Positions 22,323-27,670 of a DNA stretch of 64,000 nucleotides are shown here, one piece after another. Within the stretch, counting starts at the first letter, position 1; each line of letters starts with the position of its first letter. The DNA lies in the NCBI GenBank assembly GCA_965228475.1, contig OZ245817.1:4896001-4960000 (forward strand), in the 5' to 3' direction. The stretch is from Myxococcota bacterium (GTDB lineage Bacteria > Myxococcota_A > UBA9160 > JAFDDA01). The notes beneath the pieces were generated by a model. That model saw nothing but the letters and a program-made list of their open reading frames with translations, was not told where the DNA came from and ran no database searches. Position numbers and translations under genes: made by a program.

Positions 22323-22401
22323 GAGACCTCCGAGGTTCGGACACCGCACGGTGACCCTCGGGTTCGGACCGATCGCGAGGGGGCGGGGGTGCGCCGGGAT
22401 C

Positions 22402-23895
22402 TTAACTTGGCTCGGGGATCGGGTCTCGGGCCGTGTCGAGGGGGGGCTCGGCCTCGAGGCGGGCGCGCGCGCGGGCGAGGCGGGTTCGCCGCGCCTTCGG
22501 TTCCAAGGGATGGAAGGGCTCCATGCGGCGCGCGGCGCGGCCTTCGCCGCGGGGCTTCGCCGGGCCCGCTGCGCCCGGGGTCTTCTCCGCGCGGGCGAGG
22601 ACGTCGCGGCAGGTCCGCCAGAGGGTCGCCCGATCGGCCTTGCCGGGGCGAAGCTCGAGCGGCGGCTCCGGGCCCACGGCCAGGGCGTCCGGCCCCGCCG
22701 GCTCGCAGCCGGCGATGGGGAGCCCCTGCCCGATCCGCGCCACCGGCCGGCCGCTCGCGGCAAGCTCCGGGCAGCGCCGGGAGAGGTAGCGGGCACCCGC
22801 CAGGTAGTGGCCGTTGGTGACGACCCTCCGGCCCGCGGCGTCCCGGGCCCCGAAGGAGAGCTGGCGGTAGCGCTTGGGCTCGCCGCAGAAATCCATCCCG
22901 GCCAGGACGAAGCGGGCGGCGCCGAGCTCGGCGGCCAGGGCGAGCATGGTTTCCGAGACGGTCGTGACGGGCTCCGCGAGCACGGGCAGGCCCGCGCGCT
23001 GCCACGCCACCTGGTGGAGGTGGGGCGTCTCCAGGTGGAAGAGCACGGTCTTCCCGGGCCAGCGGTCGAGCAGCGCGGGCCGGACCGAGGTGTCGGCGAG
23101 CAGCACGCCGAAGTCGCCCGCGAGACCCTCGACGAAGGTCTCGAACTCGTGAGGGTCCGGCGCCACCACGAAGTCGGCGGTGACGCCCGCTTCCTCGAGC
23201 GGACGAAGCGCCTGGAGCGCGGCGAAGACGACGCCCCCCTCGCGGCGGCGAAGGGCCGCGAGGGCCTCCGCGTCGAGGGAGGGCCCCGGGGAGATGCAGA
23301 GAGCCGTCCGTCCGGCGCAGCACCCGGCGAGCTCCGCAGCCGTTCGTAGGTAGGGGATGCGCTCGAGCGCATCGATCGCGCGTTCGCTCACGACGGCGTC
23401 GCGCACGCGGAGCGGCTCGCGGGCTCCGCCGCCGAGTTCCGAGCGCGCAGCTTCGACGAGCCGCGCCGCGATGACGCGCGCCTCGAACCGGCACAGCTCG
23501 GTGTAGCCCGGGTGCAGCAGCAGCCGGCTCCCGCGCCGCCGCCCGGGGCACGCTTCGAGCCAGCGGTCGAGCGCTTCGAGATCCGAGACGACCGGCACCG
23601 GGGACGGCACGCGCTGCGCGCCGAGCTCGCCGGTGATCTCGGGGAACGGATCGAAGGCCACGGCGTCCGCGCCGACCGCCGCGAGGGCTTCGGGCACGTA
23701 GCCGAGCCCCAACCCGAGGAGCACCAGGCCGCCGCCGCCCGCAAGCTCGCCGGCCGCCCCCCGAGCGAAGCCCTCCGCCTCCCGCCGCGGCGCATAGCGG
23801 CTGTGGACGAAGCGCTCGCCGATCCGGAGCGTCGGCTCCCCGTCCCGGGAAGCCTCCGTCGCCCACTCGATCCCGGGCACCGCCGCTTGACTCAA
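22402..23895 (-). CDS. Maf/DUF115 (MptE-like) protein
   Basis: [31 protein letters not shown] motifs. Start uncertain. Confidence 0.75.
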
Positions 23896-24092
23896 TCCGG
23901 GCCCCTCCCTGCCCCTCACTTCGGTGCAACTCGCCGGCAGGTTGAGCCGGAGAGGGGCGCCTGGAGCGCCCTCTCCACGGCACCGCAAGAATTGGACCTC
24001 GATCGGCGGCCAAAATGGGAAGTAGGTACTTGATGCAATGGCGCACCAGTCCACCGGACCGCAGTCTTCGCTGTTAGTTCGGCGTGAGCGGC

Positions 24093-24464
24093 CTAGTCCG
24101 TCAGGTTCTTGGAGCGGATCTCGTGAGCGTGAACTCCGGACTCAATCTCGTTGATGAGCTTGAGCACCGCCTCGGTGGCGTCGCCCGCCTGTTGACGCAT
24201 GTGGATCCCTAGGTGGCCGATCAGCTCAACGGCTCGTTGCGCGAACTCGTGGAGCGTTGAGAGGTCGGCGATCTGCCGCTCCCGCAGCTCGTCGGTCAGG
24301 GCGTAGAGATTCGACGCGGTGGAGGCCGCGCCGAGCACGTCCGTGACCCAGGCGTTCGTGCTCTTGCCGGAGCGCGCCGCCGCAACCGAGACGGCCCGGT
24401 GAACCTCGGGACTCATCCGAATGCCCATCATCACCCGTTCGGTTTTCTCGGGGGTTGTAGTCAA
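24093..24464 (-). CDS. Ribbon-helix-helix (Arc/HicB-like) DNA-binding protein
   Basis: GIRMSPEVHRAVSVAAARSGKSTNAWV RHH pattern; GGGAGG RBS and TTG start 20 nt after the tRNA CCA. Confidence 0.75.
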   Translation of the reverse strand: MTTTPEKTERVMMGIRMSPEVHRAVSVAAARSGKSTNAWVTDVLGAASTASNLYALTDELRERQIADLSTLHEFAQRAVELIGHLGIHMRQQAGDATEAVLKLINEIESGVHAHEIRSKNLTD

Positions 24465-24483
24465 AGCTCCCTCCCTGGCGATT

Positions 24484-24573
24484 TGGCGGAGAGGGTGGGA
24501 TTCGAACCCACGGGGGGTGTAGGCCCCCAGGCGATTTTGAGTCGCCCGCCTTAAGCCGCTCGGCCACCTCTCC
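24484..24573 (-). tRNA. 90-nt class II tRNA: serine-identity body with CAA (Leu) anticodon
   Basis: GGAGAGG-TG-GCC GAGCGGCTTAA GGC-G-GGCGA CTCAAAA TCGCC-T-GGGGG CCTACA CCCCC-C-GTGGG TTCGAAT CCCAC-CCTCTCC-G-CCA; all stems pair; anticodon at 24539-24537. Confidence 0.92.
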
Positions 24574-24585
24574 GCCGTGATAGCG

Positions 24586-24614
24586 GAGTTAGCAACCAGG
24601 CATCTGATACGCAA
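24586..24614 (-). promoter_or_regulatory. Putative promoter of the tRNA-RHH operon
   Basis: TTGCGT-N17-TAACTC, ending 12 nt before the tRNA 5' end. Confidence 0.45.
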
Positions 24615-24632
24615 GAAATCTCGCACCCGCCC

Positions 24633-24670
24633 AAAAAAAGCGGGGCACGGGTCCTACACCCCCGTGCCCC
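24633..24670 (-). terminator. Intrinsic terminator
   Basis: Perfect 10-bp stem GGGGCACGGG/CCCGTGCCCC, 9-nt loop, then GC and 7 T on the minus strand. Confidence 0.85.
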
Positions 24671-24770
24671 TAGTTCGCGGTGGCCGAGCGGCCTAGTCCG
24701 CGTAACAGTCTTCCTCCGCTAGAGCGGATGGTCTTGGCGGCCCCTTTAGGGGGAGGTGTCCTTCACGACA
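24633..24770 (-). ncRNA. Candidate anti-tRNA small RNA (~140 nt)
   Basis: Putative promoter upstream, several hairpins, 3' terminator; two hairpins are complementary to the adjacent tRNA. Confidence 0.65.
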
Positions 24771-24776
24771 ACTCGC

Positions 24777-24806
24777 GTGTTACACCACCGCACTCGTGGG
24801 TCGCAA
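24777..24806 (-). promoter_or_regulatory. Putative promoter of the small RNA
   Basis: TTGCGA-N18-TAACAC, same pattern as the tRNA promoter. Confidence 0.4.
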
Positions 24807-24824
24807 GTATCCAGATTCTAAGCA

Positions 24825-24866
24825 ATTTCCGTGCCTTGACAAGTCGTGTCAAAAGGCACTGGAAAT
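24825..24866. promoter_or_regulatory. Long inverted repeat in the divergent control region
   Basis: ATTTCC-GTGCC-TTGACA-AGTCG-TGTCAA-AA-GGCAC-T-GGAAAT. Confidence 0.6.
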
Positions 24867-24973
24867 CAACATCTTTCCAAGCGCGTTGGATGGCTGCGGC
24901 GGAACGAAAGTTCACTACTTGGGAACTATCTTCTTATTTGCAATAAAGTAAAAGATACTGTATCGTCTTGGGT

Positions 24974-25966
24974 ATGGCGAAGAAGCACCCCCGCAACCCG
25001 ATCCTCGACGCGCTCCGCGAGGCAAGCCAGGACGAGGCGAAGGCCGTCGAGCTGCTTGAGGCTCGCCGCTTCGGCGACACGCCCGGCTGCCCCCGTTGCG
25101 GGGACACCGACGTCTACAAGATGCGGGACCGAAAGACGGGCGAGCGCGAGAAGAACTACCGATGGCGCTGCCGCGGCTGCAAGAAGATGTTCACGGTTCG
25201 CACCGGGACGATATTCGAGGAGACGCGGCTGCCGCTGCGCGTGTGGGTCTACGCTTTCTGGAAAGCGTGCGCGTCGAAGAAGGGTATCAGCGCCCTACAG
25301 ATCAGCCGGGAGTGCGAGATCAGCTACAAGAGCGCGCTCTATCTCATGCACCGCATCCGATATGCCATGCTCGAAGATCCCAGTGGCCAGCCGAAGCTCT
25401 CCGGCACGGTCGAAGTTGACGAGACGTTCGTCGGCGGAAAGCCGCGCCACTCCGTCCGAACGAAGATCAACCCGGTCACCGGAATGAAGCACCAGTACCT
25501 CCCGGCCTCCGCGAAGCCTGGTGGTTCGCCGAAGGTTCCCGTCGTTGCTCTGGTCGAGCGTGGAGGCCGTGTCCGTGCGCGTCAGATTGAGCGGGTGGAT
25601 CGCGAGTCTCTAGGCGGTGCCGTCCACGAGCTGGTCGAGTCTGGCGCAACGATCCATACCGATGAGAACCCGAGCTACCGCCACCTCGGCGCGCGCTACT
25701 CGCACGACTCCGTGAACCACACGCGGAAGGAGTACGTTCGTGGCGATGTGACTACCAACACGGTGGAAGGTTTCTTCTCCCTGCTCAAGCGTGGCGTCTA
25801 CGGGACGTTCCACTCCGTGAGCAAGCATCATCTTCATCGCTATCTGGCCGAGTTTGAGTTTCGGTACAACCACCGAGAACTCGACGACGGGGCGCGGACC
25901 CTCGCCGCTATCGACGGGGGAGAAGGGAAGCGCCTTTTGTATGAGCGATCTCCGACAACGGTCTAG
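24974..25966 (+). CDS. IS1595-family transposase
   Basis: Zn ribbon CPRCG...WRCRGCKK, HTH, VEVDET, IHTDE, TNTVEGFFSLLKRG, YLAEFEFRYN. Confidence 0.95.
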   Translation: MAKKHPRNPILDALREASQDEAKAVELLEARRFGDTPGCPRCGDTDVYKMRDRKTGEREKNYRWRCRGCKKMFTVRTGTIFEETRLPLRVWVYAFWKACASKKGISALQISRECEISYKSALYLMHRIRYAMLEDPSGQPKLSGTVEVDETFVGGKPRHSVRTKINPVTGMKHQYLPASAKPGGSPKVPVVALVERGGRVRARQIERVDRESLGGAVHELVESGATIHTDENPSYRHLGARYSHDSVNHTRKEYVRGDVTTNTVEGFFSLLKRGVYGTFHSVSKHHLHRYLAEFEFRYNHRELDDGARTLAAIDGGEGKRLLYERSPTTV

Positions 25967-25990
25967 TGGCGTACAGCTCCAACTTAAGCT

Positions 25991-26458
25991 CTAGCCCTGG
26001 ATCGTCACGCTGTGCTGCTTGATCTCAATGAAGAGTCTTCGGTCCTTCGCAGTCAGCCTGCGGTTGTGCTCCAGCTCGATCAGCTCAAGAGAGTGCTTGA
26101 CGCGGGCAAGCTCGCTCGCCTTGGTCTCGTTGCATTCGAGCGAGACCACGCCGAGGTTGCGCATTTTTGTGCGGCTACCCTTCGGCAGCCGTCGACTCGT
26201 CACCTCCTTGAAGTCCTTGTAGTTTCGTGTGACCAGAACCGCTCCGAGGTCATTCCCCGCCATCGCGATGACCTCGTCGGGTGACTGAAGGAGAAGGAGA
26301 TCGGAAACGTGGACGGTCTCGTGGTGCGCCGCCTTCAGTTCGTCGGCAACCCACAGGGGGACGTTCTCATCAATAAGGAAACGGATCCGTGGCTTGAGGC
26401 TCGGGTCAGCCGGCCTTGCGTCGTCGTGAGCGTTCGTCTCGGATCGCTGCCTTGACAT
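25991..26458 (-). CDS. PIN-like (DUF5615/Mut7-C type) toxin
   Basis: FLIDENVP...SPDEVI...LVTRNYKDF motifs; follows a DUF433 gene. Start uncertain. Confidence 0.8.
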   Translation of the reverse strand: MSRQRSETNAHDDARPADPSLKPRIRFLIDENVPLWVADELKAAHHETVHVSDLLLLQSPDEVIAMAGNDLGAVLVTRNYKDFKEVTSRRLPKGSRTKMRNLGVVSLECNETKASELARVKHSLELIELEHNRRLTAKDRRLFIEIKQHSVTIQG

Positions 26459-27047
26459 CCTTCTCAGTCAGTGTCGGGAAGCCGTCTACGATCTCTTCAA
26501 CGGTCATCCCAGAGCTGAAGTACCGCCAGATCAAACTGCTGGGAATCCGTGTTCCTGCAATCACTTGACGCCCGTTGAGGACATTCCTCCGTTTCGAGAG
26601 TTTCCCGATATCGGAGTCCTTCCGTGACCGCTTGCGCTTCAGAAGCCGCACGGTGTCGCTCCGCACTTCCTCAAGGTCGATCACCAGGATCGGGGTTTGC
26701 CTGTGAGGTTTCGTTGAGACGACTTCGTCAGTCCTAGGATCTCGGTACAGAAGCTCCTTCCCGGACAGAAAGAACTTGATGCTGGCCCACGGGTTGGGGT
26801 GATCTTCGTGAAACTCCTCATGGAGCGCACGATCTACCTTCCGAAGCTCTTGGAGGGGCACCCGCGTCCTGATCGGCGCGATGGCGCGAAGACCCACCAG
26901 GTCCCGGAACGAGTACACCCTTCGGTCGTCAACCAGGTACTCAGGGGAGAAGAAGTCAGTCTTGTCCCAGTATCGGAGTTGACGCTTGCTCAGTCCCGTC
27001 AGCTCCGCGACTTGGTCCTCGCCGAAGTAGGCGATCGAGTCAGTCAT
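26406..27047 (-). CDS. MerR-HTH plus DUF433 antitoxin
   Basis: VAELTGLSKRQLRYWD N-terminal HTH; GRQVIAGTRIP...GMTVEEIVDGFPTLTEKDVKAA DUF433. Confidence 0.85.
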   Translation of the reverse strand: MTDSIAYFGEDQVAELTGLSKRQLRYWDKTDFFSPEYLVDDRRVYSFRDLVGLRAIAPIRTRVPLQELRKVDRALHEEFHEDHPNPWASIKFFLSGKELLYRDPRTDEVVSTKPHRQTPILVIDLEEVRSDTVRLLKRKRSRKDSDIGKLSKRRNVLNGRQVIAGTRIPSSLIWRYFSSGMTVEEIVDGFPTLTEKDVKAAIRDERSRRRKAG

Positions 27048-27222
27048 CCGAGCACACCCCTATTGTTGCGTCCGAGCGGTTCGCTACCGTTCGGACGTCG
27101 GATGTGCCGACAGAGATTCCTCCTAAGACCTCGCCGGGCCAGGGCGGGGTCTTTGGTTTTCTGGGCCACGGCGGAAACCGGCCCTTCGGGTAGTCTCACC
27201 CCCCACACGCTATATTCCCGCT

Positions 27223-27372
27223 GTGGCTGATCCGGTCAAGCGCCCCGGCCCCGAGCCGGAGACATTGAAGGTCGAAATCGACCCCGAAGAGGGGTTGGCT
27301 CGCCTCTTGCGCGCCCAGCCGAAGCCGCCTCCGAAGGCGAAGAAAAAGCCCTCGAAGCGCCGGAAGTCCTAG
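27223..27372 (+). CDS. Small basic protein, 49 aa (not in ORF track)
   Basis: GTG start 6 nt after TATATT; MADPVKRPGPEPETLKVEIDPEEGLARLLRAQPKPPPKAKKKPSKRRKS. Confidence 0.55.
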   Translation: MADPVKRPGPEPETLKVEIDPEEGLARLLRAQPKPPPKAKKKPSKRRKS

Positions 27373-27515
27373 TCCTGGCCCTCTAGGGCCGCAGCGATCC
27401 TCTCCAGCGCCTCAGCGATCCGCCCAAATACCTGAACGATATTCGGATCTTCTCCGATCTTGGGAACGCGGTTGAAGGCATCGTTGACAGCCTGTGCGAG
27501 TGAGTCCTTGCTCAT
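27369..27515 (-). CDS. Small helical protein, 48 aa (not in ORF track)
   Basis: MSKDSLAQAVNDAFNRVPKIGEDPNIVQVFGRIAEALERIAAALEGQD; its stop overlaps the convergent ORF stop at CTAG. Confidence 0.45.
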   Translation of the reverse strand: MSKDSLAQAVNDAFNRVPKIGEDPNIVQVFGRIAEALERIAAALEGQD

Positions 27516-27581
27516 GGGTCACCAGGCTAACCGCAGGGCTCCGAACGCACAACGAACCGATAGACCGGCTACTTAGGCGAT

Positions 27582-27611
27582 TCCAATGCAATTCCGCGGC
27601 ATTGCATTGGA
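27582..27611. repeat. Subterminal palindrome of the IS right end
   Basis: TCCAATGCAAT-N8-ATTGCATTGGA. Confidence 0.8.
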
Positions 27612-27670
27612 TCCATACTTCCGGCCAAAATGGAGCTTTCCGGGACGGATTGGTGCCCTAGGCTCTCGCC

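Follow-up and report, generated by a model that had tools for sequence, protein, structure and literature searches.

A putative leader RNA complementary to the D and variable arms of a chimeric tRNA-Ser(CAA) in a Myxococcota bacterium

Introduction

Transfer RNAs (tRNAs) whose identity elements and anticodon do not match are known in bacteria, which raises the question of how cells keep them harmless. We analyzed a 64,000-nt stretch of the genome of a Myxococcota bacterium (assembly GCA_965228475.1, contig OZ245817.1, positions 4,896,001 to 4,960,000 of the forward strand). This whole stretch is referred to as the window, and coordinates are those of the window unless a contig is named. The window encodes a tRNA with a Ser-type body and a CAA anticodon, preceded on the same strand by two hairpins with tracts complementary to the D and variable arms of that tRNA. 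The initial annotation, made from the sequence alone, had interpreted the hairpins as a kissing-loop RNA that masks the variable arm. We tentatively propose that they belong to a leader RNA acting as a brake on the tRNA, a reading that stands nearly level with a neutral origin of the tracts.

Make-up of the tRNA

ARAGORN detected a single tRNA within the window, at 24573-24484 of the minus strand, and named it Leu(CAA); its score against the Rfam tRNA model was 56.3 bits. The tRNA (24484..24573) combines a Ser-type acceptor stem, G73, D arm, and T arm with a long variable arm and the anticodon CAA. Its 5′ 27 nt and 3′ 30 nt are those of the tRNA-Ser(GGA) of the same genome, and these identical ends span the acceptor stem, D arm, T arm, discriminator G, and CCA. 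In the alignment, 72 of the 90 positions were identical to tRNA-Ser(GGA) and 59 to the genuine tRNA-Leu(CAA), which has A73 and is encoded at C1:1967053 of the genome. The Leu tRNAs of the genome with a called 3′ end reaching CCA have A as the discriminator. Fold and alignment gave a 7-bp acceptor stem and a 5-bp T stem, both identical to those of tRNA-Ser(GGA). The variable arm follows the geometry of Ser tRNAs, with a single unpaired base on either side of a 5-bp stem and a loop of 6 nt, and, besides the anticodon arm, is the sole part unlike the host tRNA-Ser(GGA). The anticodon arm is similar to that of the genuine tRNA-Leu(CAA). The Ser identity elements G73, G1-C72, G2-C71, a Ser-type D arm, and a long variable arm are all present. 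The Ser identity that the initial annotation had tacitly assumed therefore holds for the body, with its tRNA-Ser(GGA) ends and G73, but not for the anticodon, which is CAA and was assigned to Leu by ARAGORN. The chimeric make-up of the tRNA is secure.

Seryl-tRNA synthetase (SerRS) reads G73 and the long variable arm and disregards the anticodon, as stated in a passage of PMC7609411. Because the chimeric tRNA has both of these elements and SerRS is indifferent to the anticodon, the tRNA is predicted to be serylated and should insert Ser at UUG codons. In a set of 2110 long open reading frames (ORFs) of the genome, taken as genes and filtered by codon-position GC content, 2.0% of the Leu codons were UUG, at an overall frequency of 2.07 per 1000 codons. 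In the four larger ORFs of the islet that carries the locus (see below), internal TTG codons numbered 2 out of 76 Leu codons, although the GC content of the islet is below that of the host. In the portions of the literature that were available, the name tRNA-Ser(CAA) was found for synthetic systems only, in genetic codes built in vitro.

Complementarity between the leader and the tRNA

The first hairpin (anti-D hairpin, 24672..24703, minus strand) consists of a GGCC/GGCC stem, a GCUC tetraloop, and a lower stem. It contains the tract 24695-24679, which forms 16 Watson-Crick pairs and one G-U pair with tRNA nt 6-22 and was reported by the repeat finder as the inverted pair 24552-24568/24679-24695 (17 nt, 94%). 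The second tract (anti-V) lies in the terminator hairpin and was reported as the inverted pair 24513-24527/24649-24663 (15 nt, 93%, 14 of 15 ungapped). It includes 11 contiguous pairs with the variable arm, and a gapped alignment of 24666-24649 reaches tRNA nt 47-65, where 18 of the 19 tRNA positions are identical, with a single mismatch and a gap of 1 nt. The local alignment scores of the anti-D and anti-V tracts were 29 and 26, respectively, against a maximum of 25 in 300 shuffles of the region.

The pairing is also rare at the genome scale. Across the 5.0-Mb genome, the anti-D 17-mer occurred at 7 places with up to two mismatches, and within one mismatch only at its own site, in the chimeric tRNA, and in tRNA-Ser(GGA). 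The anti-V 15-mer, with up to one mismatch, was confined to this leader/tRNA pair. None of the 58 other ARAGORN calls of the genome had two inverted self-matches of at least 10 nt within 400 nt.

According to the repeat coordinates, the symmetry centres of the two inverted pairs are at 24623.5 and 24588, and the pairs are interleaved. One inverted duplication or one template switch is therefore insufficient to explain them. These results confirm all of the elements that the initial annotation had described, at the positions given there: the 17-nt match with its one G-U pair was found at 24695-24679, the 11 variable-arm pairs proved extendable, the segment order differs from that of an inverted gene copy, and each tract is predicted to sit inside its own closed stem in one of two separate hairpins. 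A further pairing suggested there, between the U-tail and the anticodon loop, is present as a 7-nt match with one G-U pair but was given no weight because such a tail is a generic terminator feature. We regard it as secure that the complementarity between the leader and the tRNA is real and arose by copying.

A 17-nt inverted repeat might instead act at the DNA level, by inverting a 110-bp segment (the tRNA 5′ end and the spacer) and thereby turning the tRNA off and on. The inverted repeats do flank the tRNA 5′ end, and the islet is mobile DNA. However, the four larger islet ORFs gave no recombinase or invertase family match, 27040-27670 contained no further ORF of more than 60 aa (small ORFs there were not scanned), and the contigs of three sequencing runs showed no strand-changing joint, although contigs can miss rare forms. 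These contigs were identical to the window, with no variant or indel in the leader or the tRNA. The second repeat would also be left unexplained, and we consider a DNA switch very improbable.

Promoter, leader, and terminator

Both tracts lie inside a predicted promoter-to-terminator unit on the strand of the tRNA itself, and this placement is secure. A sigma-70-like promoter, TTGTCA-16-TAGAAT (24815..24842, minus strand), matches the consensus at 10 of 12 positions and has a predicted start near 24808. It is the sole promoter-like site on the tRNA strand in 24000-25300 (shuffles gave 0.3 ± 0.6) and is closer to the consensus than most tRNA promoters of the genome. TAGAAT is also the -10 sequence of the genome's tRNA-Asn promoter and of one tRNA-Thr promoter. 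The unit predicts a putative leader or small RNA of about 175 nt (24633..24808, minus strand) that contains no ORF, all three frames being closed, and that matched no Rfam family. The fold of 24625-24812 has an energy of -84.2 kcal/mol (z = -2.1).

The leader ends in an intrinsic terminator (24633..24670, minus strand), a GC-rich stem-loop directly before a U-tract. The 10-bp stem (24642-24651/24661-24670) encloses a 9-nt loop and is followed by U7, and the hairpin energy is about -24 kcal/mol. Loops of at least 9 nt were present in 16 of the 148 terminator-like sites of the genome. A minus-strand transcript ending near 24633, as the initial annotation had envisaged, is plausible from the predicted promoter at 24842-24815 and the strong terminator. 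A search for sequencing runs that contain the stretch returned none recorded as RNA. The own promoter and terminator on the complementary strand that are expected of an antisense small RNA (sRNA) are thus present as predictions. On the plus strand of the terminator, Rfam matches to CcsR1 (17.7 bits, gathering threshold 65.3) and RNaseP-T (12.9 bits, threshold 60) were taken as chance.

Read on the plus strand, the tracts have the tRNA sense, and a transcript of this strand would imitate part of a tRNA, carrying the D arm and the variable arm in sense orientation. The scan for promoters and terminators gave none on the plus strand near the tracts, and neither the Rfam tRNA model nor the tRNA-like models matched there. 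A mimic is the least probable of the readings considered here.

A 59-nt spacer (24574..24632, minus strand) separates the terminator from the tRNA. It contains a weak promoter-like sequence, TTGCGT-17-TAACTC, only, and a promoter scan of 24574-24632 returned no site. The genuine tRNA genes of the genome have a TAnnnT -10 sequence that mostly ends 6-14 nt before the tRNA. The chimeric tRNA has TAACTC only, in which the final T is absent.

Predicted folding and the proposed brake

In the minimum-energy fold of the read-through RNA, the anti-D tract pairs with tRNA nt 6-22. The acceptor and D stems are lost in this fold, and no cloverleaf is formed. Cofolding of the leader with the chimeric tRNA in trans gave a gain of -12.2 kcal/mol. 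Duplex predictions on long sequences were disregarded as meaningless long-range pairings.

Our preferred reading, held with less than even confidence, is that the leader is a brake on an aberrant and potentially harmful Ser-body/CAA tRNA. The two hairpins would form the 3′ half of a leader of about 175 nt transcribed from the promoter at 24842-24815 on the tRNA strand. The terminator would halt most transcripts at about 24633. Since a strong terminator would stop most transcripts, we propose an excess of leader RNA, with expression of the tRNA, and of the hicB-like gene that follows it, mainly through read-through. In the read-through RNA, the 17-nt anti-D tract and the 15-19-nt anti-V tract would compete with the cloverleaf, such that little precursor matures. 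The released leader may in addition contact the unusually large variable loop of the tRNA through its 9-nt terminator loop and so affect charging. Selection, not mutation, would then be the origin of the tracts.

Several findings argue for the brake. The tracts exceed chance by far and are bracketed by a promoter and a terminator, the tRNA lacks the usual -10 sequence, the read-through RNA is predicted to misfold, and the anti-V tract falls on the arm that is specific to this tRNA. The cell also has a reason to restrain a Ser-body/CAA tRNA, and a genuine tRNA-Leu(CAA) exists elsewhere in the genome. The interleaving of the two inverted pairs counts in the same direction, as do three findings described below: the upstream hairpins and promoters at comparable tRNAs, the variable-loop tract of L072, and the reported position of allo-tRNAs beside toxin-antitoxin genes.

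Weighing the brake

A number of results, given in this section and partly in the next, weigh against the brake. The first concerns pairing in trans. The leader gave cofold gains of -13.1, -12.0, and -11.5 kcal/mol with tRNA-Ser(GGA), tRNA-Ser(UGA), and tRNA-Ser(GCU), respectively. Because the anti-D gains are equal for the canonical tRNA-Ser species, any specificity lies in the anti-V tract only, and by these models the anti-D tract is not a specific mask. In addition, tRNAs fold fast, and invasion of a closed leader hairpin is therefore kinetically doubtful. A mask on the folded, modified tRNA in trans is the least secure part of the proposal, and action in cis on the read-through precursor requires fewer assumptions. 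Finally, the tRNA could be transcribed from a separate promoter within the 59-nt spacer.

The trans mask can also be taken alone, as the initial annotation had done. An independent sRNA would then block SerRS through a kissing contact between its terminator loop and the variable loop of the mature tRNA, which would be expressed from a promoter of its own. The anti-V tract is centred on the 9-nt terminator loop and is fully complementary to the 6-nt variable loop opposite, a geometry that could be compatible with kissing in the models. The variable arm is specific to the chimeric tRNA, and a promoter and a terminator are predicted. This part of the earlier interpretation is supported by the predictions. 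The other part is not. The GCUC tetraloop said to face the D-loop is present, but a loop of 4 nt is unable to kiss, and the anti-D tract, enclosed in the tetraloop stem and unspecific by cofolding, also fits the essential tRNA-Ser species. The variable-loop contact could thus belong to a purely trans mask, but the tetraloop hairpin could not. Moreover, the tRNA lacks a convincing separate promoter, and no conservation was found. We judge a trans-only sRNA unlikely.

The second line of results against the brake is the lack of relatives. No leader homologue was found elsewhere in the genome, in 40 relatives (where the tRNA part alone was matched), in 192 other genomes of the order (where the best hit was a 22-nt match in unrelated sequence), or in plasmids and phages. 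A leader search of viral contigs gave 0 matches. A further search of viral contigs gave 5 matches, namely one genuine A73 tRNA-Leu in a giant-virus bin and four non-tRNAs.

The third line is that local patch copying is demonstrable at the locus. A direct repeat of 26-30 nt has its left copy at 24075..24100, at the stop codon of the hicB-like gene, and its right copy at 24671-24700, in the anti-D hairpin. The copies lie 600 nt apart, share an exact core of 15 of 15 nt, and align with a score of 31, shuffles having reached 28 at most. Further scrambled matches of 8-20 nt connect the 3′ region of the hicB-like gene with the anti-D region. Since the anti-D hairpin is one copy of a direct repeat, patch copying without an antisense purpose has occurred here. 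The two copies bracket the tRNA and the hicB-like gene. Two other explanations of the direct repeat were rejected: an integron attC site, whose GTT...AAC ends would be wrongly ordered for the R″/R′ cores (by eye) and which has no integrase nearby, and a tandem duplication of a 600-bp unit, as the similarity is limited to about 30-55 nt. A tRNA remnant at the edge of an integrated element was likewise rejected, because the repeats are inverted and lie over the D and variable arms and the four larger islet ORFs contain no integrase.

The copying takes place in a low-GC islet at about 23900-27650, with a GC content of 55-66% against approximately 70-81% around it. The surA-like and gntR-like genes that flank the region are adjacent in a genome of the same genus (G001), in which about 22330-27650, comprising a very GC-rich MptE-like gene and the low-GC islet, is absent. 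The left islet flank had no DNA match in G001 or in a second genome, G002. The word depth in sequencing run X2 was 69-98 for the islet contigs and 130 for the flanks, and the contigs of this run break at 23917-23946 and 27622-27651.

These observations permit a neutral account, in which the tracts are by-products of the copying of small inverted and direct patches in a fast-changing, strain-variable islet, by template switching, gene conversion, or illegitimate recombination. The tracts would have no effect on the tRNA, which may be silent, and the terminator and the palindrome at the promoter (see below) would have other causes, such as the end of a lost hicB-like copy or the insulation of an insertion sequence (IS). 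The position of the anti-D hairpin within a direct repeat and the scrambled matches nearby are as expected from such copying, as are the low GC content of the islet, its absence from G001, its lower depth in run X2, and the IS1595 transposase inside it. The core of the anti-D tract, GGCCGAGCGGCC, is GC-rich and near-palindromic, only its two central bases differing from its own reverse complement. The genome contains 110 exact inverted repeats of at least 14 nt with spacers of 30-300 nt, and very many windows were scanned. The locus is also a singleton, and other odd tRNAs showed no significant antisense enrichment (next section).

Other features are harder to reconcile with a neutral scar. 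Two interleaved tracts require at least two independent events on one 90-nt gene. The right copy of the direct repeat differs from the left by a single substitution and an inserted GGCC, and each of these five copy-specific bases matches the tRNA. One tract falls exactly on both the terminator loop and the variable loop, and a promoter-terminator unit encloses the two tracts. Copying alone also does not explain why, out of 59 ARAGORN calls, it is the one anomalous tRNA that is targeted. We rate a neutral scar almost as likely as the brake, on the strength of the direct repeat, which proves patch copying, and of the singleton nature of the locus.

In addition, the genome has a recurrent family of inverted repeats with GC-rich arms of 27-35 nt and spacers of about 45 nt, resembling miniature inverted-repeat transposable elements or repetitive extragenic palindromes (for example, at C1 3261556-3261661, 1259032-1259137, and 3436260-3436363).

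Comparison with other Ser-body tRNAs carrying Leu anticodons

If mismatched tRNAs need restraint, similar leaders may be sought at other loci. Comparison loci were taken from a genome scan (CAA only, 36 loci) and a metagenome scan (at least 119 loci). Usable loci were L046, L047, L057, L072, L090, L135, L143, L148, L150, L170, L185, L188, and L192, together with L097, L109, L110, L126, and L155. The controls were ten A73 tRNA-Leu and, from this genome and its relatives, 88 normal tRNAs.

A hairpin with a U-tail within 80 nt upstream was present at 4 of 13 odd tRNAs (the window tRNA, L046, L072, and L150), and at 4 of the 88 normal tRNAs and 1 of the 10 tRNA-Leu. With the window tRNA left out, the comparison was 3/12 against 5/98 (p = 0.04); this is a post hoc comparison with control sets of different GC content and taxon. 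The U-tail ends a few nucleotides before the tRNA in L046, L072, and L150, and also in L097, which was not counted. At L072, L150, and L097, another 70-85 nt upstream, there is a sigma-70-like promoter, and the same tool rule gave no promoter for L046. An alternative measure, the strongest simple hairpin within 80 nt, was dropped because it flagged 50 of 71 GC-rich controls and missed known terminators.

L097 and L150 are homologous over the promoter, leader, terminator, and tRNA (79% column identity). They are two metagenome contigs with a leader of about 70 nt, which has no Rfam match, a tRNA(UAA), and compensatory changes in the terminator stem. The variable arm of L097 does not track the leader motif kept in common with L150.

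Upstream antisense words of at least 9 nt numbered 7, in 4 of 14 Ser-type loci, and 0 in the 10 Leu controls. The 88 normal tRNAs gave 19 such words per 34.9 kb, and for this reason the excess outside the window (5 seen, 2.4 expected) is not significant (p = 0.09). Complementarity to the variable arm within 150 nt upstream was significant only at the window locus (p = 0.0015) and L072, in which a 9-nt leader tract is complementary to its own, different variable loop (p = 0.0035). L150 has a 7-nt complementarity (p = 0.056). For the 17 other odd tRNAs together, the combined p was 0.54, and the smallest p times n was 0.06. As to whether complementarity is retained or covaries, these analogous loci provide no more than hints.

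Ser-body tRNAs with Leu anticodons (CAA, UAA, or UAG) occur sporadically in metagenome-assembled genomes (MAGs) and metagenomes of unrelated taxa, namely at L046, L047, L057, L072, L090, L097, L109, L126, L143, L148, L150, L155, L170, L185, and L192. L150 has a zinc-ribbon transposase-like ORF next to it, and L046 a gene that by eye resembles a helix-turn-helix regulator. The 3′ acceptor strand is damaged in L057 and L135, and L064, L076, L120, L183, and L200 are 5′ halves only. L047, a Ser-body tRNA(CAA) in a Rhodospirillaceae MAG, has a 12-nt perfect inverted repeat of its nt 2-13 at -15 to -4, which would form a hairpin swallowing the 5′ acceptor strand.

Neighbouring genes

The gene downstream of the tRNA on the minus strand (24093..24464) encodes a hicB-like ribbon-helix-helix protein of 123 aa (PF05534, E = 4.4e-8, residues 6-44). 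It starts with TTG behind GGAGGGAG, 20 nt past the tRNA, with no terminator in the gap. A word-based search of 5.8 billion clustered proteins revealed no other member, and 8 of 401 genomes of the phylum, including this one, had any hicB-like match, in the ribbon-helix-helix domain only. In HicAB operons, hicA precedes hicB. The chimeric tRNA, directly upstream of the hicB-like gene on the same strand, occupies the place of hicA.

An IS1595-family transposase gene (24968..25966, plus strand; PF12762, E = 1.1e-42; PF12760, E = 7.8e-9) is divergent from the leader. The islet also carries a DUF5615/PIN-like gene beside a MerR-DUF433 gene and no synthetase gene. An imperfect palindrome with 12-nt arms (24826..24864, 83%) spans the -35 sequence of the minus-strand promoter. 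It may represent an operator, or else two IS ends that abut. An 11-nt motif related to it occurs at 25929-25939, near the 3′ end of the transposase gene.

With these neighbours, the brake can be extended to an all-RNA toxin-antidote pair on a mobile islet, a form that we hold to be rather improbable. The toxin would be the tRNA, charged by SerRS and reading UUG, a codon that is rare in this host of 70% GC and, by conjecture, perhaps commoner in invaders of lower GC content. Excess leader made before a leaky terminator would trap the precursor through the anti-D tract, kiss the variable loop, and exclude SerRS, and the ribbon-helix-helix protein would close the promoter by way of the palindrome that spans its -35 sequence. 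Release of the brake would cause a burst of Leu-to-Ser mistranslation that would hit UUG-rich foreign genes hardest.

Comparison with known systems

If the brake is real, restraint of a tRNA by an RNA that pairs with the tRNA body would be demonstrated for the first time; in the parts of the literature available, we found no relevant report of an sRNA that pairs with a tRNA body. Terminator-gated leaders could then be a general leash on miscoding tRNAs, and regulated mistranslation, with a possible use against foreign DNA, would be directly testable with a 400-nt construct. If the tracts are only a scar, the locus still provides a tRNA-Ser(CAA) of canonical shape.

CopA/CopT and RNA I/RNA II are kissing-loop antisense RNAs of plasmids, whose targets are mRNA or primer RNA encoded on the opposite strand of the same DNA. 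At the present locus, recognition would likewise start between hairpin loops, but the RNA to be recognized is a tandemly encoded tRNA, and small inverted patches are the source of the complementarity. T-box leaders share with the locus a leader RNA that lies upstream of a terminator and pairs with a tRNA. However, T-boxes pair with the anticodon and the NCCA end and the present tracts with the D and variable arms, the controlled gene here is the tRNA, and the locus gave no Rfam T-box match at E values up to 10.

Type III toxin-antitoxin operons of the ToxIN type have one promoter followed by an RNA antidote, an intrinsic terminator that sets the ratio, and a harmful product. The locus has the same order of promoter, RNA, terminator, and product, a likeness of layout only. 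It differs in that 23900-25000 contains no tandem repeat, the product is a tRNA in place of an endoribonuclease, the antidote would work through base pairing instead of protein binding, and no homologues were found.

Allo-tRNAs, as described in parts of PMC5389517, combine Ser identity with non-Ser anticodons, including those of Leu, and often lie beside toxin-antitoxin genes. The chimeric tRNA resembles them in its Ser identity and Leu anticodon and in its toxin-antitoxin-like and transposase neighbours. It has the canonical 7/5 acceptor and T-stem arrangement, unlike the 8/4 or 9/3 arrangement of allo-tRNAs, and PMC5389517 describes no antisense partner, the word "antisense" being absent from its text. 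A review (PMC11415595) that covers the tRNAProX/ProRSx pair of Streptomyces and Kitasatospora emphasizes the need to regulate encoded mistranslation. Like the chimeric tRNA, tRNAProX is a genome-encoded bacterial tRNA in which identity and anticodon do not match. It concerns another amino acid, and its partner is a dedicated synthetase, whereas the partner proposed here is an RNA.

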